The notes beneath the pieces were generated by a model. That model was not told the DNA's origin, did not search any database, and worked only from the letters and a program-made list of their open reading frames with translations. A stretch of DNA of 64,000 bases, from IMG/VR virus record IMGVR_UViG_3300037010_002464. One strand, written 5' to 3'. Shown here piece after piece: positions 6,911 to 58,738 of this stretch; positions within the stretch are counted from its first letter, which is position 1, and every line of letters begins with the position of its first letter. The DNA is from a virus. Made by a program: the position numbers and the translations under genes.

Positions 6911-7293
6911 TTACCCCCAGGCGTCCCAACTACCTTCTTCGAGAATTGCTACATAAAATGCATCAGCATATGACTTATACTGAACATTGGCCTCGCAGAT
7001 AGTGATGGCAGGGTGGACATTTTCAAAGGTCACATCGATGGCTGGAAGGTCATGCTGTTCCATGACCTCTTCAAAACGTTTCCGAATGACCTCCTCCCAC
7101 TCGTCTTGGGAGATGCGCGTGTTGTAAGGGTTGTAGAAGATCTTGTCTAGTTGGTAGCAAGGACCGTCATTGGCCTTTGTGACCTTCAGGCCACCGTCGC
7201 TCTGGAGCTTGAAGTCCCAGTCGTCAGGGAACGTGTCGATGAAGTCTTGCTGCATCTTGAGCAGTCGCTTCTTGTCAGGCGATCGAGCTTCAT
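6911..7293 (-). pseudogene. MKL/LKxQQ-family protein, frameshifted at the N-terminus; tandem paralog of 7290..7724
   Basis: ATG AAG CTC at 7293 (ATGA overlap) is 38 nt out of frame with EARSPDKKRLLKMQQDFIDTFPD. Could still be expressed from ATG 7255. Confidence 0.55.
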
Positions 7294-7724
7294 GATGCGG
7301 TCAGCTCATTAATGCGAGCCCAGATATCATCGGCTACGAATGAGTTACCGTATTGGTTCCAGGCATAGTCGCCGCCGTAGTCTCGCACGTAGTACTCGAA
7401 TGCGGCAGTATAAGAGGGGAACTCAAGCTGCGCGTCCTCAAGATATCCGCGCACCACCTTGCCGCCGGTAACCTTGACGTCAATCTTCCGTTTCTTGTAG
7501 TCGGCCTCAATTTCAGCTCGAGCTCGAGGTGCTGACTTGACGCTTTGATCAGGCAGCCCGATCTCATCCTCTGTGGCATACATCGGAGTGGTATCATCCT
7601 CTACCGATGCTTCAAGCTTACCATCATTTGTGATCTTGAAGCTCCAGCCATCCGGAAACGTGTCGATGAAGTCCTGTTGAGCCTTTAGCAAGTCAGCCTT
7701 GGATAAGATTTCAGCCAGCTTCAT
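7290..7724 (-). CDS. MKL/LKxQQ-family small protein
   Basis: MKLAEILSKADLLKAQQDFIDTFPDGW; paralog of the downstream gene. Confidence 0.7.
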   Translation of the reverse strand: MKLAEILSKADLLKAQQDFIDTFPDGWSFKITNDGKLEASVEDDTTPMYATEDEIGLPDQSVKSAPRARAEIEADYKKRKIDVKVTGGKVVRGYLEDAQLEFPSYTAAFEYYVRDYGGDYAWNQYGNSFVADDIWARINELTAS

Positions 7725-7740
7725 CCGAACCTCACGATAA

Positions 7741-7895
7741 GCTTGCTTAGCTTGACGCTCCAACGCACGAAGATGAGCTTCTTACCCAGGGAGAACCTGA
7801 AGCCGCGGGAAGTACCCCACTCGGCTGTTGGGTAGAAGTTGAAGCCCCGCTTAAGGATATACCGCCTTCGGGTGTTACGTTGAAGCCTAGCATAG
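7741..7895 (+). ncRNA. Candidate structured RNA in intergenic gap, antisense to flanking genes
   Basis: Nested stems CAACG/CGTTG, AGCTTCTTACCCAG/TTGGGTAGAAGTT, AGCCG/CGGCT and a c(UUCG)g hairpin; G-U pairs favour the + strand. Confidence 0.45.
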
Positions 7896-7896
7896 G

Positions 7897-8526
7897 TCAG
7901 ACCACGTCGTTGAACCAACTTCTGAAGTCGCCTGGGAAGTTAGCCGGGTTGTAAAGCCAAAGGCCTTGCGAGTGCACGTAGAACTTTGCGAGCTGCAGCT
8001 CGCCGACGAGCACTGAGGTCGTGGCTTGGATGAACCGCTCGCAAGAGGGGAAGATGACAAGCGTGCCAGCCTGAGGCTGGAAGCTAAAGTTATAGACGGG
8101 GAACTCAAGCTTCCCGCCGTAGACGTGCTGCTTGAGGTTGAAGGGAGGGGTGTCCTGGTAGTCTTTCAACCAGATGATGCAGGAGAGGTCACGGCCTGAA
8201 ACTCGTGCCCACTTCTTCCGCTTGTAAACCGCGTTGTCACAGTGCGGGGCTTCTGCCAGCTTCGCATTTGAGGTCGGAAACTGCTGGAACTGAATGGTCT
8301 CGGTGGCCTTGTGCTTGATGTCGTAGTGCTCTTCGATGAGCGGAATCAGCGGCTTGAACTTGTTGTAGATCAGGTCCTCCGACGCCTTATGGGCACGAGC
8401 CATAGGTAGAGGCCGCCCTTCTGAGTCCTTGTCTGGCTCGACGACTCGTGTTTGGTCGGCGATACGTGCTACTTCTTCAGGTGTGAGGAAGCCTTGCTGG
8501 ATGATGAAAGGCGAACGATATGTCAT
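7897..8526 (-). CDS. 2OG-Fe(II) oxygenase-like (prolyl-4-hydroxylase-type) protein
   Basis: PHCDN, RDLSCIIWL, YGGKLEFP, P-AGTLVIFPS; distal His apparently absent. Confidence 0.75.
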   Translation of the reverse strand: MTYRSPFIIQQGFLTPEEVARIADQTRVVEPDKDSEGRPLPMARAHKASEDLIYNKFKPLIPLIEEHYDIKHKATETIQFQQFPTSNAKLAEAPHCDNAVYKRKKWARVSGRDLSCIIWLKDYQDTPPFNLKQHVYGGKLEFPVYNFSFQPQAGTLVIFPSCERFIQATTSVLVGELQLAKFYVHSQGLWLYNPANFPGDFRSWFNDVV

Positions 8527-8639
8527 ATGAGGCTATTTAGGATTGCGGAGGAATCTGTGCAAAACTGAGTTGTCGCTACATGTCCTTTGCATGTCCCAAC
8601 GCAGCATCACATGTGTGAATAGCGATCTCCTTACTATGA

Positions 8640-8882
8640 TCCTTTGTATAGAAGATGCCTTCTTCACGGACATCAGGTGATGTCAAGCTCAAGACTGTCA
8701 ACAATAAGCCTCTGTGGGCGCTGATCTTTGTGCACTATGGGCACATGTACCAAGTAAAGGTGCACCCATGGCTCACGTCGACGACGTTGACAAGGATTAC
8801 GCGGTCGAGTACACCTCAACTACGCCAGAGGACGTGCTTCGATACATCAATGAAGCAAACATTCCTGGTCCGCATAAATAGC
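8640..8882 (+). pseudogene. Probable frameshifted small gene
   Basis: Protein-like text switches frame near 8770 (PLWALIFVHYGHMYQVKV then VDDVDKDYAVEYTSTTPEDVLRYINE). Confidence 0.35.
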
Positions 8883-8885
8883 TGA

Positions 8886-9485
8886 GTGAGCGGCTTAGCA
8901 ACTTTTATCATCACCGAAGGCTTGAAGGCGCGCAGTGTGCTTGCCCTTCATCGCTTCGATAACGTCAAGCATCACGTGACCAAGGACTTGCAGCGGGAGC
9001 TGCTAAGGGCCTGGAAGCAAGCCACCCGGTCGCTCAAGCTCTCTGTAGACAAGGCGCAAGCTGAGGATGCTGTCTTCAAGAACCCTAAAGCGTTGACTGA
9101 CATTGCTGTCAGCGATGTTTCTACCAAGCTCTATACTACGGCTGAAACAGGCCGAGTCAAGCAGGTAAGCCCAACAGTTAAGCTACCGCTGTTGCTGAGC
9201 GACGCTGACCGTGCAGTGGCGCGCGAAAAGCTGTTTGACGCTGCAGCTGACACGTTCAAGACCGTCATCGACACGTGGTCCGAGGTGTTCATCCATGAGA
9301 AGTCGGGCCAGGCTCGAACCGACTTCTGCGTCAAGCGTGACGCACGCTCTGTGAGGCTTTGCCTCACCGCCCTTGAGAAGGGCGTAGAGCACGAGACATT
9401 GCTCTACCATATTACAATCGAGCACGGAAAGATCGGATCAAAGGTGCGAGACCATGATACAATCTTCCTCTCGGTTGACAGGTAA
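8886..9485 (+). CDS. Hypothetical late protein, possible head protein with ...ITE propeptide
   Basis: GTG 5 nt after TAAATA; MSGLATFIITE N-terminus. Confidence 0.65.
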   Translation: MSGLATFIITEGLKARSVLALHRFDNVKHHVTKDLQRELLRAWKQATRSLKLSVDKAQAEDAVFKNPKALTDIAVSDVSTKLYTTAETGRVKQVSPTVKLPLLLSDADRAVAREKLFDAAADTFKTVIDTWSEVFIHEKSGQARTDFCVKRDARSVRLCLTALEKGVEHETLLYHITIEHGKIGSKVRDHDTIFLSVDR

Positions 9486-9506
9486 CCCATCAATCAACGA
9501 GCTTAA

Positions 9507-10163
9507 ATGAAAATCTCCCAACGTCGAATGAAGAAAGCAGCGGCCGAGGAGCTCGCTACTTCGGACCTGGCTTCGATGGCATGCGTGTCGCCGATTGACA
9601 TGTTCTCGCTGGCATCTTACGCCACATACATGTACTTCGATGACGTGACTCAAGATTCATCGCGAGACCTGGTCGAGTTCTTGATCAAGTCCAACTTCGT
9701 CTTTAGCACGGACACGACCTTGTCTCTGCTGATCAACTCATACGGCGGCGACGTGCATGCGGGCTTTGCGGCTATCGATGCCATGGAAGTAAGCCGTTTG
9801 GAGATTCAGACCGTCGGCATCGGTGCAATCTGCTCGATGGCCGCCTTGATGTTTGTCTCAGGCACGCCAGGTAAGCGGATCATGTCACGGAACGCGTTCA
9901 TCATGACGCACCACTTCAGTGAAGGCGTCGAGGGCACGTACCATGACTTCATCGCGATGCGCAAGACTCAAGACATCATGCACAAGCGGTTCGTTGACCA
10001 CTTCGTCAAGCGGACCAAGATGACAGAGCAGCAAGTTAAGGACATTCTACTGTCGCCCACAGACCGCTGGATCACCGCACAAGAGGCGTTGGAGCTAGGG
10101 TTATGTGATATCATTCGGGATCCCTGGGAAACGCCACCAGATGCCCCTTCCGTCCTCGCATGA
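9507..10163 (+). CDS. clpP: ClpP-like serine protease
   Basis: INSYGG, G-ICSMAA (Ser), MTHH (His), TDRWITAQEA-ELGLCD (Asp). Confidence 0.92.
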   Translation: MKISQRRMKKAAAEELATSDLASMACVSPIDMFSLASYATYMYFDDVTQDSSRDLVEFLIKSNFVFSTDTTLSLLINSYGGDVHAGFAAIDAMEVSRLEIQTVGIGAICSMAALMFVSGTPGKRIMSRNAFIMTHHFSEGVEGTYHDFIAMRKTQDIMHKRFVDHFVKRTKMTEQQVKDILLSPTDRWITAQEALELGLCDIIRDPWETPPDAPSVLA

Positions 10164-10827
10164 TGCGCCGCCTGTTGAGCTAATAGCGGCCGTCGATAAC
10201 CTCTCAGACCCAGCAGCAGTTGCTGCTTGGGTTGAGAAGCAGCTTGCCTTCGATGCTAAGAGCGGCAGTCCCTTTTTCCTCACCTACACCAATCACACAG
10301 TTGGTGATGATGGACGTGTCTCATTAGCGGGTAATGTCAACGCTCAGGCATTGCCTCAACGCCTGAAGCCCTACAACCGTCTCCCTGTCAACTTCAAGAT
10401 TGTCAGCGGCGCTGTCTGGACCAACCCTGACATCATCTCCTTTGAGGGATTTCCTGAAGTCGTCGACTTCATTAACGTCTCATCATCAGCTATCCCTAGC
10501 TGGAACGGCTGTCCTCGTCGAGTTTCTGCGTTGGTGCTCAATGAGCAGCTTGCCCAGCGTGTTGACCCCAAGCACGCTGCGGGCAGCGCGGCAGAAACTA
10601 TCAACTTGGGCTACCTTGAAAAGCCCACATGCTTGCCTAGACTGGCGTTCTTCCCTCAGCTCCAAAGTCTCGCATTCACCTGCGCGCCTGAGATCCTTGA
10701 TGAGAAGCAGGTTGAGGAGCTAAAGGACTTCTTCATCCCCCGCCTGAAGGTTGCGTTACGCAATCGAGCAGGTGTTCTTCGCTTAGAGCAGGAGCTAATC
10801 GATGCAGGCTATGAAGAGTGGGTTTAA
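10141..10827 (+). CDS. Degenerate leucine-rich-repeat-like phage protein
   Basis: LPVNFKIVSG, SFEGFPEVV, SWNGCPRRV repeats; C-terminal LRLEQELIDAGYEEW. Confidence 0.55.
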   Translation: MPLPSSHDAPPVELIAAVDNLSDPAAVAAWVEKQLAFDAKSGSPFFLTYTNHTVGDDGRVSLAGNVNAQALPQRLKPYNRLPVNFKIVSGAVWTNPDIISFEGFPEVVDFINVSSSAIPSWNGCPRRVSALVLNEQLAQRVDPKHAAGSAAETINLGYLEKPTCLPRLAFFPQLQSLAFTCAPEILDEKQVEELKDFFIPRLKVALRNRAGVLRLEQELIDAGYEEWV

Positions 10828-11149
10828 GAGCGAGTGCCGTCAACTCTTCTTGAAGTTTCAGCAGATCGGGATTGATGATGAAATGAAGCTCGCATCGGCT
10901 ATACCGGCTGTTGCTTGCTTCCAAGCCAAGTTTGAGGACTCAAACCCAATGGTTGTTCAGACCTTGATCCTCACCATCTATGATCGCGTTGATGACTGCA
11001 TCGTAGTCGTATGCTATGGCCCTCGTAAAGGCGATGAGCAGTACGGCTCAATGAAGTATCGACGCAGCTCTGCCATGGCAGAGGGTGCCATCGTAAAACT
11101 GCTTGAATGGAAGCAGGATCAATTCTCTTTCCAGATTGAAATCAATTAG
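10811..11149 (+). CDS. LKxQQ-family small protein
   Basis: MKSGFKSECRQLFLKFQQIGIDD N-terminus. Confidence 0.55.
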   Translation: MKSGFKSECRQLFLKFQQIGIDDEMKLASAIPAVACFQAKFEDSNPMVVQTLILTIYDRVDDCIVVVCYGPRKGDEQYGSMKYRRSSAMAEGAIVKLLEWKQDQFSFQIEIN

Positions 11150-11181
11150 GGTGGTAAATAGCTTCAGAAGGTAACCACCTA

Positions 11182-11568
11182 ATGAAGCTCAACAACCTGT
11201 ACCAAGGCAAGCGTTTGATCGCTGAAGGTCGTGTAGACCCGAACGTGCTCATGTCACTGCAAAACATCATCAAGGGCGGCCAGGCTCGTGAGACCATGCA
11301 GTTCATCGTGCTGGCTCGCTTGATCGAGTTCTTCAAGAACGGCTACTTGTATAAGACCAACAACTTCTACGACCCGTTCCTCTCAACTTCCGGCGAGCTG
11401 CTCGCGCAACTGCGCGGCATGAAGCCTGAAGAGCAGGTTGAGCTGGCGAAGAAGATGCTAGAGCTTGCGGAAATCAAGGACCAAGACCTCCTGTACAGCT
11501 ACGTCAACCCGACTCAAGAAACCCTGCTGTGGATTCAGTGGGCAACAAAGCGCGAAGCTAACGACTAA
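11182..11568 (+). CDS. Hypothetical late protein
   Basis: TAAATA at 11155; MKLNNL...IAE start; genome-typical codon usage. Confidence 0.7.
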   Translation: MKLNNLYQGKRLIAEGRVDPNVLMSLQNIIKGGQARETMQFIVLARLIEFFKNGYLYKTNNFYDPFLSTSGELLAQLRGMKPEEQVELAKKMLELAEIKDQDLLYSYVNPTQETLLWIQWATKREAND

Positions 11569-11592
11569 TTCTCTTTTGCTGTCATTTCCCTC

Positions 11593-11632
11593 AACGGCTC
11601 CTAAGGCTTAACCCGCCTTCGGAGCCGTTTTT
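11593..11632 (+). terminator. Intrinsic terminator
   Basis: AACGGCTCC...GGAGCCGTT stem followed by a T-run. Confidence 0.75.
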
Positions 11633-11688
11633 ACTTCCATCCCAGACGGCATCCGCCGCTTAACCTCAAAACCCTTGGAACAACAACA

Positions 11689-12444
11689 ATGAGCCGTAAA
11701 CGCTATAACGATGAGTCTACCGTCAAGAAGCCTGGCACCTATGTCAACAAGCTGACCCTGAAGAATTCGGCCCAGCAGCATTATGCTGATATGCTGCAGG
11801 AGTCAACGGTGACATTTTGCTTCGGCAAAGCTGGCACGGGTAAGACCTACATCGCTGCGTACTATGCCCTGAAAGCACTGCTTGAAGGTGACGTTCGTCG
11901 TATCATCCTGACCCGTCCGATCGTTGCTACGGAGGATATCGGCTACCTCCCCGGCGACATGCTTGAGAAGATCCACCCGTACATCCTCCCGCTGCTCGAC
12001 GCGATCGAGGACCATGTGGGCCCGACCAAGGCAAAGGAGCTCCTCAACAACGGTCAAGTTGAGATCATTCCGCTGGCGTACATGCGCGGTCGGTCAATCA
12101 ACGAGTCCTTTGTGCTGCTTGACGAAGCGCAGAACTGCACTCAAGAGCAAATGATGATGTTCTTGACGCGCTTGGGCTATGACTCGAAGATGGTGATCAC
12201 TGGTGATACGGCTCAATCTGACCTGAAGGTGCCGAATGGTCTTAAATGGGCAGCAGATCGATTGGTTGGTCGCAACGAGCACATCAGCGTCGTTGACTTC
12301 GGCGGCGCTGCTACCGTACGAAATCCGCTAATCGAAGATATGCTCAACTACTTAGAGCTGGATCCAGCAGCTCCGACGCGAAGGGTCACTGAAGGCCCAG
12401 GCCGTTTGATCAAGGGTCCTGGAAGCTTGCTATCTTCTAGCTAA
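11689..12444 (+). CDS. phoH: PhoH-family ATPase
   Basis: GKAGTGKT, LTRP, GYLPG, AYMRGRS, LLDEAQN, LTRLG, ITGD-AQSD. Confidence 0.95.
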   Translation: MSRKRYNDESTVKKPGTYVNKLTLKNSAQQHYADMLQESTVTFCFGKAGTGKTYIAAYYALKALLEGDVRRIILTRPIVATEDIGYLPGDMLEKIHPYILPLLDAIEDHVGPTKAKELLNNGQVEIIPLAYMRGRSINESFVLLDEAQNCTQEQMMMFLTRLGYDSKMVITGDTAQSDLKVPNGLKWAADRLVGRNEHISVVDFGGAATVRNPLIEDMLNYLELDPAAPTRRVTEGPGRLIKGPGSLLSSS

Positions 12445-13022
12445 TGTACTACGTCTACCACATTGTTGATCCTCGAGACAATAGCCTTACAAGAGGCTAT
12501 ATTGGCGTGACTAAGCAAGAGCTCGTCGAGCGTTTCAAGGATCATCAACGTGGTAACCGAATCATCGGCAAAGCTATTCGGGCCCTAGGCTTGACTTCCG
12601 AGAGCATACATCTACTGTTTAGCTATTCTACAGCTGCAGAAGCCTATGCCAAAGAGGAAGAGCTCAGGCCTGACAACTTCATGGGATGGAACCAGTGTAA
12701 AGGTGGCCGCGGCGGCGGTGCCGGTCCAATATCCGAAGAAGCACGTGAAAGCCGGCGCCGCAATGCTTTGCGAGGATCAGACAACCCACGGTTCGGTATC
12801 TCCTGACGTTGTAGTTCATATAAAGCATGTCTTGATGACAAAGCATACACCGTTGAGCGATCGCGTCGAGCAGCCGCTGGAGGTGCAGGCGGCAAAGGCC
12901 TTCCAAAAGATTCTCCAAAGTACGCGCAAGCGGCTTTAAACCGACCTAAGTACGTCTGTTCAAAGTGTAATAAAGTTGGTCAGTACAACTCGATGATTGC
13001 TTGGCATGGTGACAATTTGTAG
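12444..13022 (+). pseudogene. GIY-YIG homing endonuclease, frameshifted
   Basis: YYVY...GYIGVT, R F H, E, WN..GG; the C-terminal CSKC...WHGDN motif lies in another frame near 12955-13020; AT-richer than flanks. Confidence 0.75.
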
Positions 13023-13105
13023 GTCGGCGGCAAAATAGTGTATAATGATTTTGTGCTCGTTGATACGATGAGCTCATCACTCTGAGATATTGACCCTAGG
13101 CTTTC

Positions 13106-13375
13106 ATGCAGTCCTCCCAACCTACGTTCAACCAAGATGAGGCTCTCCGGTCACTGCGCGAGAAGTTTGCGCGCTTAATCGGAAGGCTTGGAGCGAACAA
13201 CAGCCACGGCACCCGCCGGCATGAATTCGAAGTTGAGTTCTGCTATGCGGTGCGTGAGCTCGAAGGCTGCCCGCCGTATCTTTCGGGCAAGCTCTTCGAT
13301 CGTGTCGCCAATGTTTGCAATGCGCTCGCGCAGACCATTCGGGCTGACGACGACCAGGCGCCCCGCGCTCGGTAA
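13106..13375 (+). CDS. Hypothetical protein
   Basis: ORF downstream of TATAAT (about 13041) and followed by a GC hairpin. Confidence 0.6.
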   Translation: MQSSQPTFNQDEALRSLREKFARLIGRLGANNSHGTRRHEFEVEFCYAVRELEGCPPYLSGKLFDRVANVCNALAQTIRADDDQAPRAR

Positions 13376-13382
13376 CCTCTAC

Positions 13383-13413
13383 GGGGCGGCTTCGGTCGCC
13401 CCCTCCTAATTTT
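13383..13413 (+). terminator. Hairpin/possible terminator
   Basis: GGGGCGGC-TTCG-GTCGCCCC with a weak T-run. Confidence 0.5.
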
Positions 13414-14004
13414 ATGGCATCACATCCTATCCCCAAGTTCGGGCTCGCGATTGACTTCGAGACCACCGGGTACTCCCTCCCGCACTATGCCGAACGGCAT
13501 CAAGGCGTCTCCTTCGGCGCGCTGATCTTCGACATCGAGCGGCTGACTGTTGTTGACACGCTGTACTGCGAGATCAAGTATGACCCGAAGTACGCGTGGG
13601 AGGACACCGCTGAGAAAATCCACGGCCTGACTCGTGACTACCTCAGCAAGCACGGCGTCACGCAAGCCGAAGCCGCAGAGCAGCTAGCTCTGATGGTCCA
13701 CAAGTACATGGGCACCGAGAATGTCGTTGTTCTCGGCCACCGCCCGCACTTTGACATCGCTTTCCTTGACCAGCTGTTTGACTCGATCGGCTTTGCTTTC
13801 AAGTATGACCCCATCAAGCTCGACACGGCCGCCTTTGGCTTGGTCATGTTGGGGATGACCAAGTCCGATGATCTGTTTGACGCGGTAGGCCTGCCGCCGC
13901 GCGGGAAACATGATGCCTTAGAGGATATCATTTACACGTTGGAATCTCTAAGGCAAATCCGAGATTATTTCTTGACAGGACTTGCTGTATCAGCATCGTC
14001 CTAA
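13414..14004 (+). CDS. DEDDh 3'-5' exonuclease (DnaQ/RNase T-like)
   Basis: IDFETTG, A-KIHGL, H--FDI-FL, LDT, HDALED. Confidence 0.88.
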   Translation: MASHPIPKFGLAIDFETTGYSLPHYAERHQGVSFGALIFDIERLTVVDTLYCEIKYDPKYAWEDTAEKIHGLTRDYLSKHGVTQAEAAEQLALMVHKYMGTENVVVLGHRPHFDIAFLDQLFDSIGFAFKYDPIKLDTAAFGLVMLGMTKSDDLFDAVGLPPRGKHDALEDIIYTLESLRQIRDYFLTGLAVSASS

Positions 14005-14670
14005 ACTGAAGCCATTAGCAAGATACAGCTCTAGCTCATCTTGTTTGACGCGCTTAGTTTTCTCTTCATTGTGCACCCATACGCGCCCTTTTGAGCTAAC
14101 ACTCATGAGGGCGCGAGCATTTGGAGCCACAACTTTTCCTTTTTGAGCAGCGCTTATCTTAGCGCGCTCTTCTTCTGACTTAATTCTACCGGTAGCTGCC
14201 CTAGCAACTGCGTCCTTGACATGTTGAGGACATGGAATTCCTCTGTGAGCTTCACCAAGCTTTTGAGAATGTTCCGCAGCACGCGAAGGCTGCTTACGAC
14301 CTTTATGAAATTGACTGATACGAGCCTTATGCTCGTCTGATAACGTCTTACCTTTGTGAACAAGGCTTAGCATCACAGCCACCCGTCGGCGATCGGCTTC
14401 GTATAATTTGTATTGCTCCTTGCCAGTCACTTTATACTTTCGTTGAATGCGAGCTACTGCTTGAGCTAATCCATGATGCATTGGATAAATGCGGCACAAC
14501 AGTCGATGTGCGAACAAATGCTCTCTGTAAGGAAGCTTGACCAAGTTTACTTTCGCATCACTACCACCCATGCATCTTGGTACAATGTGATGACGCTCAC
14601 CTTCAACGTCTGAAGATTTACGCTGTTGTCCTCGCTTGATCAAATTTTGATAGATGATGCTGTAGTTCAT
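13990..14670 (-). CDS. Free-standing HNH homing endonuclease with NUMOD3 repeats
   Basis: ERHHIVPRCMGG, NLVKL-REH--AHRLL; repeated SEEHK-KIS..HKG; AT-rich. Confidence 0.9.
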   Translation of the reverse strand: MNYSIIYQNLIKRGQQRKSSDVEGERHHIVPRCMGGSDAKVNLVKLPYREHLFAHRLLCRIYPMHHGLAQAVARIQRKYKVTGKEQYKLYEADRRRVAVMLSLVHKGKTLSDEHKARISQFHKGRKQPSRAAEHSQKLGEAHRGIPCPQHVKDAVARAATGRIKSEEERAKISAAQKGKVVAPNARALMSVSSKGRVWVHNEEKTKRVKQDELELYLANGFSLGRC

Positions 14671-14726
14671 AAGTATGCGTTAGAAGTTATTATGTATATA
14701 GCAGTTAGCGCTATGATAAATATGTC

Positions 14727-15920
14727 ATGGCCCTCAACAACCGCATCTATAAGTACACGTGTGACACGTGCGATCGCAGCATTGAACGGCTGGCGGACCC
14801 AACTCGGCCAGACCCCTTACGCTGTGTCATCACCGACCAGTGCGCTGGCAAGCTATCCTTGGCAGGCACTAGGTTCGGCCTCAGGCCTGTCAACACCCCA
14901 ACCGTCATCGGCCTCCTCGATCGGGTTAAGCGCGGCACCGCCCGGGTGGCCGCGGCCGCGGAGAAGCCCCTTGACAAAGTAAGCCTCGCATCCTTTAGCG
15001 GTGGAGGCTTAACTCTCTCGCTTGTCAGGTCAAAGCTTAGCGGCTCCCAGCGCCTCTTCTACATCAACGACTCGGTAGGCTTCGAGCGCGTGCTCGCTCG
15101 CTGTGCTAGCGATGCCGTACAACCTGCGGCGCTCGAAGTAAAGGCCGTGCTTTTCGAGCTGACGCCGGCGGCTCTTGAGTACAAGCGCTACACCTACAGC
15201 CGAACTGACAGCTGCGTGTATGTGCAGGGCAAGGATGACTCCGCCAACCGAAACCTCCTGACTTTTGACAGCACCAGCAACGTGCGCGTACTTGTCAACG
15301 GCGCGCTGCTTGACTCGACGCTGTACTCGGCTGCGGCAGGCACGATTACCTTCTCTCCTCAGCTTGAAGGCCCTTCTCTTCTCATCGAAGTCTTTGTCTA
15401 CAAGTCGCTGACCCAGTTCTTCAATGAGGACCAAGCTCTCAAGCTTGCATTCAGTATCCTGCCTCAGCTTGATGCTACACGGTCCACAGGTGCTTGGGGC
15501 AACACGTTACGCGTCGGCGCCCATACTCCGCTCTATTGCATCGACCTAGGCGCTCTTGATCGAACCCGGACCTACGGCTTGGTACGCTTCGAAGCGGCTG
15601 ATGAGAACGGCACCACTTACGTCATCTCAAGCACCGGTAGCTTCCTGCTTGCCCGCGCACCCTATGCGTTTGAAGACAAGCGCCTGACAGCCACCGTGCC
15701 CACAACAACGTTGACGGCTGAAGGGTTCTCTGTGAGCTTTGCTGTTAATGGAGAGACCGGCAGTATGGAGCTAGTCATTGACGGAGCGACGCTTCAGCCT
15801 CAAGCTCGACCGTTAGCGTTGACAGCGATGCCAGCGGTCGCTGTTAGCACTCAGGCTGCAGACATTGTCAACCTGCTAGTAGAGCGGAACGAAAAAGCCT
15901 TCATCATCGGACCCGCATAA
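14727..15920 (+). CDS. Hypothetical late/virion protein with N-terminal Cys cluster
   Basis: ATG 4 nt after TAAATA; CDTC...C-ITDQC; beta-rich body. Confidence 0.65.
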   Translation: MALNNRIYKYTCDTCDRSIERLADPTRPDPLRCVITDQCAGKLSLAGTRFGLRPVNTPTVIGLLDRVKRGTARVAAAAEKPLDKVSLASFSGGGLTLSLVRSKLSGSQRLFYINDSVGFERVLARCASDAVQPAALEVKAVLFELTPAALEYKRYTYSRTDSCVYVQGKDDSANRNLLTFDSTSNVRVLVNGALLDSTLYSAAAGTITFSPQLEGPSLLIEVFVYKSLTQFFNEDQALKLAFSILPQLDATRSTGAWGNTLRVGAHTPLYCIDLGALDRTRTYGLVRFEAADENGTTYVISSTGSFLLARAPYAFEDKRLTATVPTTTLTAEGFSVSFAVNGETGSMELVIDGATLQPQARPLALTAMPAVAVSTQAADIVNLLVERNEKAFIIGPA

Positions 15921-15950
15921 ATAGTCTCGAGCAGCTTGCAGGAGGCCACA

Positions 15951-16451
15951 GTGCGTAACTACTACTACAGCTTCGAGATCAACCTCGAAAATCCTCATAT
16001 CCGCGAGCACCTTAAAGGTACAATCGTAGACATCGCAGGTGATGACATCACCGAGCTGAATGTCAACAGCCGTCTCTTCAATGATTCGGCTGCCTGCCTC
16101 GAGGCGCTCCACACCGACCTTAACCGCAAGGTTGAGCTGCTGAAGATCAGCAAGTCGAAAAACGCGGTCACGTCTATCAACGAGACCAACCCGATGCACT
16201 CGAATTCCGCCGAGGACCTTGAAAAGTTCAAGAAGGAGAACCCAGAGTTCACCGACTACCTCGACACTTGGGGCGATGACGAGGTCGTGCGAATGACATA
16301 CACGACCGAAGAGTTTGATGAAGAGGCGCCGCCGATCATCAATGATGAGCACGCGATGATCTTTCGCTACATCATCCATGAGTTCGAGGACTACATCGAG
16401 GTACCTGAAGGCAAGATGTACATCGACATCAACTCCTCCGTGGTGCACTAA
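15951..16451 (+). CDS. Hypothetical acidic protein
   Basis: GGAGG RBS before GTG; TAAATA at 15918. Confidence 0.7.
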   Translation: MRNYYYSFEINLENPHIREHLKGTIVDIAGDDITELNVNSRLFNDSAACLEALHTDLNRKVELLKISKSKNAVTSINETNPMHSNSAEDLEKFKKENPEFTDYLDTWGDDEVVRMTYTTEEFDEEAPPIINDEHAMIFRYIIHEFEDYIEVPEGKMYIDINSSVVH

Positions 16452-16543
16452 GGCAAATTGCATTTGAATAAATGCGGTTTAGGTGCATTTTGAATAGAAT
16501 CCATCTTGCCGTATCGTTACGGCTTCATCGAGACCATTCATAA

Positions 16544-16849
16544 ATGACAAAAGACCTGACAGGCAAGAAGCCCGAATTCTCCTTGGCCAGCGTGATGGCC
16601 AACGAAGTGACCAAGAAGCAGCTGCTCGGCTTCATCGACGAGATCGTCCTCTGTGAGGGCAAGATCAAGTCCGAGCGCGAAGCGATCAAGGACATCAAGG
16701 GCGAAGCCGAATCCGCTCTCGCCATCCCATCGCAAGTGCTGGGCGAACTGGTGCGCGAGCGCCTGGATAACGGCAGCATCGACGCTAAGATCAAGAAGCT
16801 GGAAGAGGCCAAGGATCTGGCCGTCGGCCTTGGCATCACCTCGGAATAA
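16544..16849 (+). CDS. DsbA(T4)/GapR-like dsDNA-binding protein
   Basis: L-GFIDEI...KIKSEREAIKDIK-EA pattern; about 100 aa. Confidence 0.65.
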   Translation: MTKDLTGKKPEFSLASVMANEVTKKQLLGFIDEIVLCEGKIKSEREAIKDIKGEAESALAIPSQVLGELVRERLDNGSIDAKIKKLEEAKDLAVGLGITSE

Positions 16850-16863
16850 GGGGAGCACACATC

Positions 16864-17382
16864 ATGAGCGCACTCCCACCTAGAGCATGGCCCTTCCCCA
16901 CCGGCAACAAGCCGCAGCCAGCATCCGCCGTCAACGGCGGCGCCAACTACGCTGCAGGCTCGACCCGCAAGGCCTGGTCACCCGCCGACCTGAAGGCTTT
17001 TGCCAAGCTGATCGTTGCAAACGAGACGCCGGCTGACATGGCCAAGAAGCTCGGTCGGACCGTCAAGGCCATCGTTGGCCAGCTCGGCGACCTGAAGACC
17101 GGCAAGACGGCGACTGCCCTGACGCTTGCCAGCTATGTAAAGCACGAGACCAAGGTTTCAGTCAAGCCCAAGCATCACGATGATCGCTGGGACAATGACG
17201 GTGACCGGACGCTGCTGCTGGCCTACGCTACCGGCGGCACGCCCGAGCAGATCGGCGCTGCATGCGGTCGGACAGCCTATTCGGTCGCCGGCCGCCTGCA
17301 TGCCCTGGGCGTCTTGAAGTTCGACAAGGACAACAAGACCTACATGACCGTGCCCCAAGCCTGGTTCAAGGTCGCGGACTGA
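16864..17382 (+). CDS. Tandem Myb/GcrA-like HTH protein
   Basis: Two W...D..L...A..(L/C)GRT..(A/S)(I/V) repeats. Confidence 0.6.
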   Translation: MSALPPRAWPFPTGNKPQPASAVNGGANYAAGSTRKAWSPADLKAFAKLIVANETPADMAKKLGRTVKAIVGQLGDLKTGKTATALTLASYVKHETKVSVKPKHHDDRWDNDGDRTLLLAYATGGTPEQIGAACGRTAYSVAGRLHALGVLKFDKDNKTYMTVPQAWFKVAD

Positions 17383-17385
17383 GCC

Positions 17386-17562
17386 ATGACGGCCGTCTTG
17401 TACTTGCTGTTTAGCGTTCTGGCTGGCTTTGGGCTGCTTGTTGGCCTAGAGCACATGAAGAACTCGAACGCGAAGGGTGAAGACGGCCGAGCAATGGGCG
17501 TCTTCTTCCTGATCGTCGGGTAGGTGATCTTTTGCGGTGTTATGGCCGTAAACGCCCACTAA
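17386..17562 (+). CDS. Small two-TM membrane protein, interrupted by an in-frame TAG at 17521
   Basis: MTAVLYLLFSVLAGFGLLVG...MGVFFLIVG*VIFCGVMAVNAH. Confidence 0.4.
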
Positions 17563-17580
17563 CTGCCCTCGCCCCTCAAG

Positions 17581-17604
17581 GCCGCTTTTATTAGCGGCTT
17601 TTTT
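17581..17604 (+). terminator. Intrinsic terminator
   Basis: GCCGCT-N6-AGCGGC-TTTTTT. Confidence 0.75.
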
Positions 17605-17619
17605 CATTCTGGATTTAGC

Positions 17620-17814
17620 ATGACCCAAGAGCTGAGAATCGTCGAAAGAAAAGAGGACTCTTTGTGGGTCCGTGTTAGAATGATTGAAATCAAGAAGGGT
17701 GACGTTTTCCGAATGTTTGAGGACGGCACCCCTATTGAGTGGAGCGGCAAGACAGAGTTTGAAGCCGCTTACGACGCCGATGAAACAGGCGTCATCACGA
17801 AAGGGAATACTTGA
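17620..17814 (+). CDS. Small hypothetical protein
   Basis: ORF whose stop overlaps the DNA polymerase start. Confidence 0.55.
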   Translation: MTQELRIVERKEDSLWVRVRMIEIKKGDVFRMFEDGTPIEWSGKTEFEAAYDADETGVITKGNT

Positions 17815-20800
17815 GCTTCGTCTCCACGTATTATGACAAACGACAAGCAAAGGTGCTTGTCTGGGAAAAGCTAGCCAGCGGGCAGCGTGTTCGTAAGCTC
17901 TACGATCCTCCCTATTATTTTTACAGACGAGATGACGCAGGGCCGTTCATCTCGACTTCGGGCGTGCACCTCAAGAAGGTGAACTGCTCGTCATCGAGCG
18001 ACTTCGACGAAGCTATTGCCGATGCTCAGCTTCGACGCTTGACGCTGTTTGAGTCCGATGTCAATCCGCTCGAGCGGATCCTAATGGATATCTACTCGAC
18101 GAAGCCTGCACCTGAGCTGACTATCGGCCTCCTTGACATCGAAGTTGACTATAACCCAGACATTGGCTATGCGGGCCCTGCCAATCCCTACGCGCCGATC
18201 AACGCTTTCACCCTGTGCGTCAACGGCCGGATGTGCACGGTCGCCGTGCCGCCGAAGAGCTGGGGCCCAGATGACAAGCTGCCTGCTGAGCTGAGCGAGG
18301 TCATCCTGGTCACCAATGAGGTTGAGCTGCTCGAGCTGATGCTCGACTTCCTCCAACCTTGTGACGTGCTGTCGGGCTGGAACTCCGAGTTCTATGACCT
18401 CCCGTACATCGCCAAGCGGATCGAGCTTGTCATGGGCAAGCACGTGCTTGATAGGCTAGCGTTAGAAGGTGGCCCGAGTCCTCGGTGGACTGAGAAGGCA
18501 AGGTTTAAGCACTCGAAGGAGAAGGACCCTGTCATCGACCTGATTAGCCGGGTCCACCTCGACTACCTCCGTCTCTTCCAAAAGTTTGACCTGACCAAGC
18601 GTCAGTCCTACTCCCTGAGCAACGTGTCGCTTGAGGAGCTGAAGGAGGACAAGGTTGAGTTCGACGGCACGCTTGCTGAGCTGTACAACAATGACTTCGT
18701 TAAGTTCGTCACCTACAACATCCATGACGTGACTCTGCTGGTTAGGCTCGATGCGAAGTTCCGCTACATTGAGCTGGCTAACCAGATGGTGCACATGGCC
18801 TCAGTCAACTTTGACTCGGTCTTCGGCTCGGTGCAGCTGATCGACACGGCCATCATGAACTATGCGCACAACACGCTGCAGCGCATCGTCAATGACCGCA
18901 ACGTGCGCCCTGAAGGCGACCCGGTTGAAGGCGCTATCGTGGTCACGCCGAACGTCGGCTTCTACCGGTGGATCGGCGCTTGTGACATCAACTCCTTGTA
19001 CCCAAGCACCATTCGCTCGCTCAACCTGTCCCTCGAGAAGCTCGTAGGGCAGATCATCGGCCCGTCGGACCTCGACAATGGCTGGGTTGAGGTCAAGCTG
19101 CCCAGAGGCGTTAGCACTCACATCGTTTCGAAGAAGTACCGGGTTGACGTGGTCGTGCACCGCAACGCAACCACCACCCGTGCCGTCTGGACGTACTACA
19201 AGGACCTTGACGGCAACGGGGCGACAGATACCAATGTCCGCTACGGCAATCGAACCGAGAACATCACAACGCCGCAAGATGACGCGGTCTATGACGCCAA
19301 CGAGTACGGCTGGCGCGTGTGGTCCGCCGTGGCTCTCGACCCTGAAAGCCCATTCAAGGACTTCATGCTCGATGTTAAGTTCGATCATGACCCGCAAGTG
19401 CTCGCGCTGCCTGCCAATGTCGTCGTCGACTACTGCAAGGAGAACAAGTGCGCGGTCTCGGCTTACGGCACGATCCTCGATCAGGGTAACGGCCAAGGCC
19501 TGGTCCCTGAGGTGCTGACCTCCTGGTTCTTCGGTCGGAAGGAGATGCAGGCTGAGAAGAAGAAGTACGGCAAGCTAGCTGACAAGCTGCTCGCCGAAGG
19601 CAAGACGGAGAAGGACCCTGAGGTCATCGAGGCGAAGCGCCTAGCAGGCTACTACGACATGCTTCAAGGCGTGCGCAAGGTGCTGCTCAACTCCACCTAC
19701 GGCGCTATGCTGAATGAGTACTGCCGCTTCGGCGACCCACGCATCGGCGCCTCGGTCACCTACAGCGGTCGACAGATCACCAACACGATGATCAACACGG
19801 TGTCGAAGAGCCTGGCGCCTACAGGTCAAGCTCCGCTGATGCTGAAGACCTTTGACCCGCACTCGAAAAAGGACTCGAAGACAGGGACCGACGGCAAGCA
19901 TAACTTGCGCTGGGGGCAAAACGCATACTCGATCATCATCACGCCTGGTGCCGGCCCCATCTATGGCGACACCGACTCGGTCTACTTCACATACGAGAGC
20001 ATCGTCAAGGGCATCGATGACGTTGACGTGCTGGTTGAGGCAGCGAACGCTATCGCTGATGACATCAATGACGCCTTCCCGCCGTTCATGGTCTCAGGTT
20101 TCAACTGTCAGCCAGGCTTCGAGACTTTGATCAAGGCCAACCGTGAGCTCGTGTGCCGGACCGGCCTGATTCAGGCCAAGAAGAAGTACATGATGCTGGT
20201 CGTCGACAAGGAAGGCAAGCGCATCAACCCGGGCGACGAGGACGAGCTGAAGACCATGGGATCGGACATCCGCCTCTCGTCAACGCCGACCGTCATCCGT
20301 CACATGCTGACGGACGTGGTGATGAAGCTGCTCAATGAACGGTCCAAGAGCGAGATCGACAAGGTGGTCATCGACTTCCGGAACTCGCTTGGCACTACTA
20401 CGGTCACTGACCAGATCAACCCGCTTGATATCGCGATGGTCACCTCGGTCAACAACCTCGACGAAGCGTGGACGCTGTGGGACAGGCTCGAACGCAACGG
20501 CTTGAGTAAGGTCAAGATTGCGCCAAACGCCCGCAACGCTGTCAACCACAACTACATGCTGGAGCATTTTAAGGTGCTAGACGGGGTCCCTATTAAGTCA
20601 GGGGATAAGATCAAAACCCTGTGGCTCCTAGATAACGCTTTCGGCTTCAAGAGCATCTCCTTTACCTCAGAAACTGAGGACTTGCCCCTTTGGTTTACCC
20701 GCAATTTTCAGGTAGACCGAAAGCTAATGGAGCAAAAGCTCGTGGACAATAAGCTCGAACTCATCTTCACCCCGATGAACTGGGAGGTCCCTACCTACCA

Positions 20801-20834
20801 ATCTCAGCTCATCAACAACCTCCTGGACTTTTAA
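17811..20834 (+). CDS. Family B DNA polymerase (T4 gp43-like)
   Basis: Exo DIE, GWN---YD, YN-HD; Pol DINSLYPS, K-LLNS-YG, YGDTDS, KKKY. Confidence 0.97.
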   Translation: MSFVSTYYDKRQAKVLVWEKLASGQRVRKLYDPPYYFYRRDDAGPFISTSGVHLKKVNCSSSSDFDEAIADAQLRRLTLFESDVNPLERILMDIYSTKPAPELTIGLLDIEVDYNPDIGYAGPANPYAPINAFTLCVNGRMCTVAVPPKSWGPDDKLPAELSEVILVTNEVELLELMLDFLQPCDVLSGWNSEFYDLPYIAKRIELVMGKHVLDRLALEGGPSPRWTEKARFKHSKEKDPVIDLISRVHLDYLRLFQKFDLTKRQSYSLSNVSLEELKEDKVEFDGTLAELYNNDFVKFVTYNIHDVTLLVRLDAKFRYIELANQMVHMASVNFDSVFGSVQLIDTAIMNYAHNTLQRIVNDRNVRPEGDPVEGAIVVTPNVGFYRWIGACDINSLYPSTIRSLNLSLEKLVGQIIGPSDLDNGWVEVKLPRGVSTHIVSKKYRVDVVVHRNATTTRAVWTYYKDLDGNGATDTNVRYGNRTENITTPQDDAVYDANEYGWRVWSAVALDPESPFKDFMLDVKFDHDPQVLALPANVVVDYCKENKCAVSAYGTILDQGNGQGLVPEVLTSWFFGRKEMQAEKKKYGKLADKLLAEGKTEKDPEVIEAKRLAGYYDMLQGVRKVLLNSTYGAMLNEYCRFGDPRIGASVTYSGRQITNTMINTVSKSLAPTGQAPLMLKTFDPHSKKDSKTGTDGKHNLRWGQNAYSIIITPGAGPIYGDTDSVYFTYESIVKGIDDVDVLVEAANAIADDINDAFPPFMVSGFNCQPGFETLIKANRELVCRTGLIQAKKKYMMLVVDKEGKRINPGDEDELKTMGSDIRLSSTPTVIRHMLTDVVMKLLNERSKSEIDKVVIDFRNSLGTTTVTDQINPLDIAMVTSVNNLDEAWTLWDRLERNGLSKVKIAPNARNAVNHNYMLEHFKVLDGVPIKSGDKIKTLWLLDNAFGFKSISFTSETEDLPLWFTRNFQVDRKLMEQKLVDNKLELIFTPMNWEVPTYQSQLINNLLDF

Positions 20835-40075: not shown

Positions 40076-40183
40076 AGCCGCGATGCAGCTTTTCTTGCCC
40101 GAGGCATTTGGGTTGAAGCTTAAGCAGCAATCTGCACAGCTACTACGGCTCGAAGCATGATATCTACCTTCGGCCTCAACGAG

Positions 40184-40330
40184 CTAACAAGCATTTCCCA
40201 GTGTCAGTCGTAATCGAGTGGGATGGCATAATGCTAGCAGCGAAAGCAACACCGTCTTCGTGTTCAATTCAGGGTCTTCGATCAGCAGCTGTTGAAGCTT
40301 AAGAGCGCTTGTCCGAATCTCTCGAGCCGT
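40184..40330 (-). pseudogene. LKLQQ-family remnant lacking its start
   Basis: AREIRTSALKLQQLLIED read in an alternative frame across the end of 40299..40820. Confidence 0.4.
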
Positions 40331-54492: not shown

Positions 54493-54501
54493 GGGAACCT
54501 C

Positions 54502-56313: not shown

Positions 56314-56607
56314 TTACGCGAGTTCGCCAGCGCCGTACTTGGTCGTGACAGCGCTTGAAGCGGCCGTGACCAGGTTAGCCAGCGTTGTGCTGGTTGCAGG
56401 CACCGAGCCGTTCGGGTAAGCGATCTTGACGGTGTACGTGTCATTGATCGTCATCGCGATGTCGTCCTTCGTGACCGAAGTTGCGGTAGCGGCGCCCGAC
56501 TCATGGATGAAGTCGACTGCGGAGAACGAAACCAGGGTGATGACTGGTGAACCAGACGGGCCGGTGCGGTTGATCGTGATGGTGTGAACTTTTCCGGTGA
56601 GGGACAT
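56314..56607 (-). CDS. Small late structural protein
   Basis: AGGAG RBS, TAAATA at 56661, strong codon bias, own terminator. Confidence 0.7.
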   Translation of the reverse strand: MSLTGKVHTITINRTGPSGSPVITLVSFSAVDFIHESGAATATSVTKDDIAMTINDTYTVKIAYPNGSVPATSTTLANLVTAASSAVTTKYGAGELA

Positions 56608-56659
56608 GTGAGCTCCTAGGCGTGAGGGTTCGCACGCCTATGCGTGCATTGTTGTACCC

Positions 56660-56884
56660 TTATTTATCGGCCAGCAACCTGCTAAGTTCATTAAAGCCGC
56701 CGACCGACCGGTCTTCAGCGACGATGAACGGCACGGCTTTAACGGCTGGGTAAAGCTGACGGAAGGCTTCGAGTGTGATGTCAGCTCCGATCTTAACTGC
56801 TTGAAACGGCTCGCTCTTGGAGGTTAGCATGGCTTTTGCGCGGTCGCACTGGGGGCAGCCGTCTTTGGTGTAGACTGTGTACAT
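56660..56884 (-). CDS. Glutaredoxin/NrdH-like redoxin
   Basis: CPQC, VP-I, GGF; near nrdB. Confidence 0.9.
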   Translation of the reverse strand: MYTVYTKDGCPQCDRAKAMLTSKSEPFQAVKIGADITLEAFRQLYPAVKAVPFIVAEDRSVGGFNELSRLLADK

Positions 56885-57240
56885 GGTTGGTTAGGGTTTT
56901 AGGGAGGTGGCCTATGATATAGGTATGGGCTAGGTCAACGGTAGCAAGGATGTTTTGAATCGGCTGATCGACCCTGAAAAAGCCTGAGCTGGTGACCTTT
57001 ACGGCTATCCGCTCAACTTCGCGAAGGTTTAGCGCGTTAACCGCGATGTCTGAAACCACAGCCGCCGAGATGATGTAGTCGCCGACTCGTGTGCAGCTTA
57101 ACACTGACACGCATGAGGTTGCCCTGCTGCTTAGCGGAGCTCGTGTTGACGCGCCGATTTGCTTAAGGGAAGTATCTATCCCTGAGTCGACTAGCAGCTG
57201 CTGCAGCTTGAGGGCCACAGCGCTTCTGGCTCTTGACCGG
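56885..57240 (-). pseudogene. LKLQQ-family remnant
   Basis: RARSAVALKLQQLLVDSG without an MKL start; frame runs into the glutaredoxin gene. Confidence 0.45.
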
Positions 57241-57283
57241 GACTATCCCGGACATGTACTCGCGCTGCAGTTCAAGCTCGTAG

Positions 57284-58372
57284 TCAGAGAGTCGGGAGTG
57301 TGCTGAGGTCAAGCTCATCGTCGAGGGCTCCGATGACGTAAGCGGTGGACTCGTTCTCCTGCAGCGCGGTCTGCTTCATCGAGGTGTTCGAGTGCTTGTT
57401 GAACCAGGGCAGCGGGTTGCTCTTCGGCACCACCGCGGTGTACTTGACGCCGATGGCCTTCAGCACGTCAATGGCTGTCCAATCCACGAAGTCCTTCATG
57501 ATCTGTGCATTCAAGCCTATGACCACGCCCTTCTTGAACAGGTAGTCAGCCCAAGCCTTCTCCTCAGCGATCACGTCGAGGTAAAGTTGGTAGGCCTTGT
57601 CCTTGCAGCGCTCCTTGGCGGCTTTGAACCGGTCATCATCCTTAACGCATTGGTTGATGATGTAGGCGGTCCAGTCCTTGTGCAGCAGCTCATCCTGCAG
57701 GATCAGGCTGATGATGTTGCCGTTGCCGATGAAGATCTTGTTCTCAACCATGCCGAGGCTGGTTGCGAATGAAACCATGAAACGGATCGCCTCGAGCGCG
57801 TAGCTGGCGTTAAGGGCCATCCAGATGGCGTCGACATGCAGCTCTTCATGCACATGTTGGCCGGTAGCGATCAGCGAATTAAGCCGATGAAGCTCATCAT
57901 AGTGCTCGCCGATCCTGGCAGCCATCTGCACGATCTCGACCGTGTCATGGATCTTGTTGAACTCATCCTTGGGCTGGCCGTAGATGTTACGGATGATCCA
58001 GCTGTAGGCCTTCGAGTGGATGTTCGCCTCGAAGAAACCCCAGTTGTTGAACAACAGCTCAAGCTCAGGGATCGAAGCGATCGGTGTAAAGACCTGAGTT
58101 GGGCCTCGGCCCTGGATCGAATCGAGCGCTGTTTGCCGAAGGAGGTTACTCGTGAAGATGTGCCGAACGGCATCAGATGCCTCCTTAAAGTCGGTCTTGT
58201 CCTTCATTAAGGTGATTTCCTGCGGGCGCCAGAAAAACCCCTCCGCCGTGTCATTGAACTTCTCGATCTTTGGGTAGCGAACCTCCTCGAAGCGCTGAAC
58301 GGTCACGCGACCGTCAAGGAACATCCGGCGGCTCAGGTAGTTTGTTGGCTTAGAAAAGTCGTAAGTGCTCAT
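57284..58372 (-). CDS. nrdB: Ribonucleotide reductase class Ia beta subunit
   Basis: FFWRPQE, QTALDSIQGR, E-NIHS-AY, LEAIRF-VSF, DE-LH, TALQE-E--AY. Confidence 0.97.
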   Translation of the reverse strand: MSTYDFSKPTNYLSRRMFLDGRVTVQRFEEVRYPKIEKFNDTAEGFFWRPQEITLMKDKTDFKEASDAVRHIFTSNLLRQTALDSIQGRGPTQVFTPIASIPELELLFNNWGFFEANIHSKAYSWIIRNIYGQPKDEFNKIHDTVEIVQMAARIGEHYDELHRLNSLIATGQHVHEELHVDAIWMALNASYALEAIRFMVSFATSLGMVENKIFIGNGNIISLILQDELLHKDWTAYIINQCVKDDDRFKAAKERCKDKAYQLYLDVIAEEKAWADYLFKKGVVIGLNAQIMKDFVDWTAIDVLKAIGVKYTAVVPKSNPLPWFNKHSNTSMKQTALQENESTAYVIGALDDELDLSTLPTL

Positions 58373-58738
58373 ACGAAGATATTGTCGGTGAAGAATCGGG
58401 CTACATCGCTAGCGTCAGCAAATGAAGGCGTGTCGGTGTAGAGGTAGTCGGTGGGGGTCAAGGGAGTCAGGATCGCTGGCTCGACACTGATACAAATCTC
58501 ATTTTCATGGTTGTCAGGGGACATGCACCATGTAGCGAGTTTGCACATACGGCTTTATCGGGCCGTTGATGAGCACGAACACGCAAACATTTGTGATGTC
58601 ACCGATGTTGGTCTTTGCGATCTACCAAGTCAGCTTGCTCGAGACCTCGTAGCCTGCATCAATGAGCAGCTGCTGGAGCCTGAGAGCCTCTTGCCTGGTG
58701 TTCCAGCCCTCAAGCAGGCTCTTGAAGTAGCTGATCAC
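58369..58738 (-). pseudogene. LRLQQ-family gene, interrupted
   Basis: MISYFKSLLEGWNTRQEALRLQQLLIDAGYE..TW then TAG at 58624; a second-frame tail ends overlapping the nrdB ATG. Confidence 0.55.

Follow-up and report, generated by a model that had tools for sequence, protein, structure and literature searches.

A rapidly evolving, partly decayed family of small proteins in an uncultured T4-like phage carries a leader resembling T4 head-protein N-termini

How does one short peptide motif come to lie near the N-terminus of a dozen small, otherwise dissimilar predicted proteins scattered over a single phage genome? The question is raised by the viral record IMGVR_UViG_3300037010_002464, of which we analysed a stretch of 64,000 nucleotides (hereafter, the window). 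A first-pass annotation had listed 12 sites between positions 6,911 and 58,738 at which an L(K/R)LQQxxID-type motif, usually preceded by a leader of the form MKLxxLLE, begins an apparently unrelated protein, and had proposed that leader and helix together form a reusable docking tag that loads effectors into the virion. We find that the sites belong to a single gene family of an uncultured T4-like phage, one that has expanded, evolves rapidly and is in part decayed. The motif belongs to a conserved domain, and the leader in front of it is probably a separate signal, for which T4 suggests a candidate function.

The motif is conserved as a peptide

All 12 sites were present, each at its listed position and strand. 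Translation of the window in six frames contains 12 matches to L[KRT]xQQxxx[DE], whereas 200 dinucleotide-preserving shuffles averaged 0.29 and never exceeded 3; likely genes contain 7 matches, compared with 0.05 in residue-shuffled proteins. The motif is thus far above chance. A profile built from the N-termini recovered 13 copies at E ≤ 7e-8, with the next match at E 0.09. The additional, previously unlisted copy forms the final 17 residues of a 240-residue open reading frame (ORF) at 10105-10827.

A repeat acting at the level of DNA or RNA, such as a promoter, a recombination site or a structured RNA, might translate into a motif of this kind by chance, and the position of the copies at gene junctions, one of them at an inversion breakpoint, would be in keeping with it. 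However, synonymous codons vary among the copies, with all Leu synonyms and both CAA and CAG in use, which places the constraint on the peptide and not on the DNA. Identity among the copies is only about 60-70% at the DNA level, whereas conservation of the amino-acid pattern extends over about 45 residues, and the frame-independent nucleotide conservation expected of a dispersed repeat or regulatory cassette was not found among them. We rejected a DNA-level repeat on the codon evidence and give it next to no credence.

One predicted domain underlies the divergent bodies

By sequence, the bodies that follow the motif are as dissimilar as had been described. Neither BLAST nor body-only hhalign between subgroups detected significant similarity among the window bodies, and full-length hhalign scores, which derive mainly from the N-terminus, were not counted as proof of body homology. 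Bodies that cannot be aligned in this way are what a portable tag, made of leader plus helix and placed on a library of unrelated effectors, would produce.

Relatives from elsewhere suggest a different picture. A profile search covering 1.84 billion representative proteins returned 28 representatives, with no known family among the matches; all are small apart from two weak long matches, P0021 (518 residues) and P0024 (652 residues). For relatives from other T4-like phages, alignments run the full length of the protein and take in a conserved C-terminal helix, W...SYD. In P0001, P0005, P0011, P0013, P0014 and P0029-31 the helix-strand module recurs in mid-protein to give tandem two-domain proteins, and P0021 (L016:1165-2721) carries two family modules behind a 290-residue N-terminal region. 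That region had no Pfam match and bears a GS...DIDI signature, which we take to be typical of Pol-beta-type nucleotidyltransferases.

Predicted structures also bear on the bodies. The AlphaFold2 model of P0029, with a predicted local distance difference test (pLDDT) score of 78.6, shows the order helix, five strands, helix, twice over, although the two domains are not confidently packed together (predicted template-modelling score (pTM) 0.45). The model of the window member starting at 27185 (pLDDT 67) has a helix at residues 12-26, a strand at 31-37, two inserted helices, four strands and a C-terminal helix. These two models have 23 of their top 50 PDB structural neighbours in common, from 48,161 chains compared. 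Frataxin/CyaY, PsiB and the anticodon-binding domains of class II tRNA synthetases recur among the neighbours of both, at Z 4-7; because such values fall below the meaningful level of about 8, we use them only to describe a shape, namely a two-layer α/β sandwich with an N-terminal helix, an antiparallel sheet and a C-terminal helix on one face of it. The family has neither sequence similarity to these proteins nor functional residues in common with them. Superposition on frataxin/CyaY, over 77-85 residues, gave Z 5.2-5.6 for P0029 and 3.6-4.0 for the window member, where the noise line of the tool lies at about Z 8. On a helical wheel, the first invariant Gln falls within the hydrophobic face of the motif helix, as expected of a packing or interface residue, and the second lies at the edge of that face.

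The bodies are therefore unrelated only at the level of detectable sequence similarity; with one predicted fold in common, they are divergent paralogues. On this evidence, the family very probably consists of one small (about 90-150 residues) α/β domain, in which a five-stranded antiparallel sheet is preceded by a long helix at the N-terminus and followed by another helix at the C-terminus. Within this domain, conservation is strongest in the LKLQQxxID motif and the DVKL-type strand that follows it, and the motif helix, originally taken as part of a portable tag, is instead the first helix of the domain and recurs inside two-domain proteins. A single portable leader-helix tag on unrelated effectors consequently appears very improbable: the predicted architecture is the same in two members with dissimilar bodies, whose structural neighbours overlap; relatives in other phages align over their full lengths, C-terminal helix included; and an unrelated enzyme family described below has the leader but never the helix.

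The family is new, being absent from Pfam, PHROGs and NCBIfam. Scans of these three collections with window members and relatives gave nothing above noise; in Pfam, PF12699 included, 9 window members had no match at E ≤ 1 and 10 relatives none at E ≤ 0.1. Foldseek searches of the PDB and BFVD gave no match at E ≤ 0.001 for either model, and the weak top rows were GNAT enzymes, polo boxes and tandem PH domains. The ESM Atlas yielded only unnamed clusters with chance-level scores. A profile search of Ralstonia phage RsoM2USA and two IMG/VR contigs found no match, in a search whose sensitivity was not established, nor did the motif turn up in a scan of 12 IMG/VR loci surrounding related polymerases. 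A clamp-binding (PIP-like) reading of QxxIxx was also considered and dropped, as the aromatic positions are missing in most copies.

The leader is probably an independent element

Over 38 N-terminal modules the first eight residues follow the pattern M-K-L-x-x-L-(L/F/V)-E. They are joined to the helix by a linker of 3-12 residues, which in several members includes proline, as in LLEAPKPAH and LLEEKLPER. In both models the leader is predicted with low confidence (residues 1-8 of the 27185 member have pLDDT <50) and the helix with high confidence. The leader had been described as usually preceding the motif; it is out of frame at 7293 and 39352, and absent from the minus-strand copies at 40303 and 57212.

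Scanning other ORFs of the window and related loci for the leader identified it on a cytidylyltransferase-like gene (PF01467), which heads the baseplate-hub operon in three T4-like phages (L022:3336-4025 on the plus strand, L019:14695 and L020:15139). Most of 77 homologues of this enzyme, down to about 40% identity, begin with the leader, as in MKLSQILEA, MKISTLLEE and MRLQDLLEA. Even in those whose linker to the first Rossmann strand has lengthened to 20-60 residues, the leader keeps its place at the extreme N-terminus, which is the behaviour of a signal and not of a fold element. The PF01467 family carries the leader only. Of the tag first proposed, then, the eight-residue leader survives as a reusable part, set off by a variable linker and found on an unrelated family, and the helix does not; we consider it probable that the leader is an independent, reusable N-terminal signal.

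A candidate counterpart of the T4 capsid-targeting peptide

In T4, the prohead protease gp21 cleaves after L/I-x-E (PMC9026906). The first 10 residues of IPIII suffice for packaging, and the diverse T4 internal proteins have nothing in common beyond a 10-residue targeting sequence (PMC9026906, PMC3012670). The leader of the present family resembles the N-termini of T4 gp24, gp22 and IPII and contains an (L/I)-x-E site; the T4 record gives MAKINELLRE for gp24, MLKEQLIAE for gp22, MNEPQLLIE for gp21 and MKTYQEFIAE for ipII. An (L/I)-x-E lies ahead of the helix in 35 of the 38 N-terminal modules and 8 of the 10 internal ones, compared with 13-18% of control 16-residue windows, although the module counts are not independent because the modules are related by descent. 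The capsid-targeting sequence of IPI, IPII, IPIII and Alt was reportedly described by Mullaney and Black in 1996.

On the explanation that we favour, the leader would play in this lineage the part that the capsid-targeting propeptide plays in T4: it would attach the protein to the core of the prohead and then be cleaved off after its Glu by a gp21-type prohead protease. The mature domains would remain inside the head and pass into the host together with the DNA, and each copy would owe a target of its own to the rapidly changing sheet. Copies would often be lost because they are individually dispensable. By analogy with T4, we tentatively propose that the leader signals head targeting and cleavage after Glu. 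The broader proposal, in which the eight residues are a general prohead address used to load and, after cleavage, inject at least 20 fast-evolving small α/β proteins and at least one nucleotidyltransferase-type enzyme, is possible but rather doubtful; such an injected arsenal would be much larger and more modular than T4's three internal proteins and Alt. If the leader is a head-targeting signal, this phage group would illustrate the extent to which the internal protein strategy of T4 can be enlarged: the leader would be a very short natural packaging tag, and dozens of disposable, rapidly diversifying injected proteins would be natural candidates for counter-defence in the first minute of infection.

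The comparison with IPI, IPII, IPIII and Alt extends beyond cleavage. In both cases the proteins belong to a T4-type phage, are small, diverse, individually dispensable and fast-changing, and have a short N-terminal leader that begins with MK and ends with (L/I)-x-E. Some family members adjoin a lysis enzyme gene, as do ipII and ipIII of T4, which we take to be located next to e. In L022, family members stand among gp5, gp25 and other genes of the baseplate operon, with translational coupling. Unlike the T4 proteins, the members described here are homologous to each other beyond the leader, in helix, strand and fold, and their copy number is far higher, with 13 in the window and more in the baseplate region. 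A second comparison is offered by head and ejection proteins of giant phages, namely family B of SPN3US, with 20 head-protein members, and the phiKZ inner-body proteins (PF12699), paralogues that were found by virion mass spectrometry and many of which have propeptides of >100 residues (PMC5694885). These too are large within-genome expansions of small to medium-sized paralogues whose number varies between related phages. However, the leader of the family described here is 8 residues long, and the family matches neither PF12699 nor any other Pfam model.

Several observations weigh against the head as destination. We found no sequence similarity to IPI, IPII or IPIII in Pfam, PHROG, NCBIfam or a profile search of PDB sequences, and no clear fold match to them in structure searches with both models; tblastn of m1 (the member at 7290-7724) and P0029 against 50,697 GenBank phage records had no match, so the family was not found in cultured phages. 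Conservation is greatest in the helix, beyond the proposed cleavage site, a pattern not shown by T4 internal proteins, and a second constraint from fold or partner is therefore needed anyway. Two leaderless members (m2, directly downstream of m1, and the 57218 copy) keep open, well-coded frames, and many members are located in replication and nucleotide-metabolism operons and not in obvious late operons. The residue after the leader Glu is often acidic or Asn, not the small one usual in T4, and the match between two short amphipathic N-termini could be coincidental.

The main rival explanation is a cytoplasmic accessory family that is never packaged, in which the first helix simply begins with the leader. 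The conserved helix, with two Gln on its hydrophobic face, would dock a constant partner (a sister member or a host or phage hub), and the variable sheet would bind changing targets. The helix-strand unit being the best-conserved part and recurring internally fits this explanation, as do the persistence of leaderless copies, the presence of members in operons of every functional class, the tandem pairs (7724/7293, 27185/26835, 39352/39824, 36546/36683 and 10777/10802) and the fused two-domain proteins in relatives. However, it leaves unexplained both the occurrence of the leader, ahead of linkers of varying length, on an unrelated enzyme family and the proline-containing linkers between leader and helix, and the two domains of P0029 are not confidently packed against each other. 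We consider a purely cytoplasmic role unlikely, although it is the strongest competitor of head targeting.

Five of the thirteen copies are complete

The first-pass annotation counted about 12 small proteins. About half of the copies it listed are pseudogenes or fragments, and just five of the 13 are intact leader-helix-body genes (7724, 10802, 26835, 27185 and 36683). The remaining eight comprise two members without leader, two stubs of 38-46 residues, one module on the 240-residue ORF, two multiply frameshifted pseudogenes and one member, X, cut by an inversion. Half of the apparent genes are thus relics, which matters for annotation. The copies and their remnants are as follows.

6911-7293, minus strand: m2; start codon of the leader (ATG, 7293) in a different frame from the motif; C-terminal helix lost.
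7290-7724, minus strand: m1, intact, 144 residues; leader MKLAE, LLKAQQDFID helix, body.
8537-8665, minus strand: 3′ remnant of m9; in-frame stop; directly upstream of the 209-residue gene, as in L014.
8666-8885, plus strand: body of member X at the left-hand inversion junction; begins with the first strand GDVKLK; frameshifted.
10720-10827, plus strand: truncated module at the C-terminus of the 240-residue ORF 10105-10827; VLRLEQELIDAGYEEWV, then stop; profile E 2e-10.
10802-11149, plus strand: intact member, 115 residues; atypical leader MQAMKSGFKSE.
26470-26835, minus strand: intact member, 121 residues; second gene of a tandem pair.
26835-27185, minus strand: intact member, 116 residues; first gene of the tandem pair; TAAATA box at 27195; modelled with AlphaFold2.
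36546-36686, plus strand: 46-residue ORF, leader and helix only; GTG start overlapping the upstream stop (GTGA).
36683-37003, plus strand: intact member, 106 residues; ATGA-coupled.
39352-39827, plus strand: m8, pseudogene; indels of +1, -1, -49 and -6 nucleotides relative to the intact 176-residue L014 orthologue.
39824-40276, plus strand: 5′ part of m9, pseudogene; frameshifted relative to the 191-residue orthologue P0012; cut by the inversion.
40274-40324, minus strand: helix fragment of member X (ALKLQQLLIE) at the right-hand inversion junction; no start codon; overlaps the end of a 173-residue ORF.
56793-57218, minus strand: leaderless member, open frame of 141 residues; GTG start right before ALKLQQLLVD.
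58622-58738, minus strand: truncated member, 38 residues; leader-like FKSLLE, ALRLQQLLIDAGYE, first strand, TAG; GTGA-coupled.

Two contigs help to interpret these copies: L015, an independent assembly of the window's own phage, and L014, a related contig with 78-82% nucleotide identity to the window. In L014 the gene order is RimK, m8, m9, 209-residue gene, m1, m2, lysin, and all four family members are intact there; comparison with these orthologues shows that the window copies of m8 and m9 are pseudogenes. The frameshift in m2 is identical in L015 and so is not an assembly error. The m2 frame is open from an internal Met at 7255, inside LLKMQQ, for 114 residues, and its L014 orthologue is intact, with a leader and 151 residues. 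A near-identical copy of m1 is present in L015, and its L014 orthologue has 149 residues. Between the window (7293-7724) and L015 (378-800), m1 differs by a 12-nucleotide in-frame indel, one copy more or less of GACTACGGCGGC. The leaderless member at 56793-57218 overlaps a glutaredoxin-like gene by 92 nucleotides, and its frame has the best codon-usage score of the six. The frame of the stub at 58738 is open for 35 further codons past its TAG.

Positions 1-2113 of L014 match window positions 38180-40227 on the plus strand, and positions 2227-2924 match window positions 8594-7897 on the minus strand. This split match implies an inversion of about 31.6 kb in the window phage relative to L014 (approximately 8666-40276). 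Its junctions are at about 8665/8666 and 40276/40277, and the two breakpoints fall within family members, m9 and member X, which are thereby split. These two members were in direct orientation beforehand, so the inversion did not arise by recombination between them, a further point against the motif being a recombination site. Genes of the inverted segment lie on the plus strand, bar a few minus-strand ORFs such as the 27185/26835 pair, and both flanks lie on the minus strand. Taken with the pseudogenes, this is clear birth-and-death evolution within a phage genome.

The surviving genes are changing quickly. Protein identity between the window and L014 is 52% for m1 and 61% for m2, compared with 87% for RimK, 91% for the 209-residue protein and 93% for the lysin. 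Non-synonymous divergence (dN) is 0.33-0.43 for m1 and m2 and 0.05-0.09 for these neighbours, that is, the family orthologues evolve 5-8 times faster at non-synonymous sites. Within m1, dN is 0.13 over the first 45 residues and 0.62 in the body. The ratio of dN to synonymous divergence (dS) is 0.23-0.26 for m1 and m2 and 0.06-0.12 for the neighbours, with dS near saturation. High dN together with ratios of 0.23-0.26 indicates a family that is fast-changing but under selection, in which single copies are clearly expendable.

These results also bear on a reading in which the copies are mostly functionless duplicates: a self-spreading cassette, whose ATGAAGCT... start supplies the TGA stop of the upstream gene, would have multiplied at gene junctions and be decaying, and its N-terminus would look conserved only because copies are recognised by it. 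Roughly half of the window copies are broken or truncated, and the start overlaps the upstream stop in most; as had been noted for translational coupling, an ATGA, GTGA or TAATG overlap with the upstream gene is present at 7293, 26835, 36546, 36683, 39352, 39824 and 58738. The 13 copies in the 64-kb window, compared with about 1-3 per 20-kb locus in other phages, would also agree with such spreading. However, the dN/dS values of intact orthologues indicate that selection is still acting, the module is conserved across phages whose DNA cannot be aligned and whose synonymous codons have turned over, and codon usage in the intact copies is gene-like. We therefore regard wholesale loss of function as improbable.

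Genomic setting of the family

The window phage is uncultured and T4-like. Its genes include a family-B DNA polymerase (17811-20834), a DnaB-type helicase, ribonucleotide reductase subunits, a RimK-type ATP-grasp protein and a GH108 lysin. The nearest cultured relative of the polymerase is that of RsoM2USA (42% identity), and no DNA-level alignment of the window to cultured phages was found. T4 markers (Portal_T4, T4_baseplate, gp25 and gp5-like genes) are present in loci bearing family members. The RimK gene (37808-39355, plus strand), 87% identical to its L014 orthologue, encodes an ATP-grasp domain fused to a putative ATP-dependent zinc protease domain (PF05618). The glutaredoxin-like ORF (56660-56884, minus strand; 74 residues, CPQC motif) lies downstream of the gene for the ribonucleotide reductase small subunit.

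P0013 and P0023 are located in the baseplate gene cluster of L022, where further family members are found at 2627-17736 among baseplate genes (gp5-like, gp25 and a 1159-residue DUF8360 protein). Most of these overlap the adjacent gene at stop and start codons. Among them are the two-domain P0013 and a 256-residue protein whose first module no longer has the QQ pair. In the T4-like contigs L018, L020 and L021, a family gene stands tail to tail with a gene for a 200-residue ClpP/NfeD-type protease, at sites that adjoin gp46/gp47-like recombination nuclease genes.

A TAAATA box had been named as a recurrent companion of the family. It is present directly upstream of 27185, but of no other member, and also precedes many other genes. 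The hexamer lies 4-15 nucleotides upstream of many start codons on both strands, at 25 window sites (for example, 8875, 14717, 15918, 27195, 30223, 35270, 49177 and 56225), a spacing too short for the usual distance from promoter to start codon. It may indicate where late transcripts with very short leaders begin, or belong to the ribosome-binding context.

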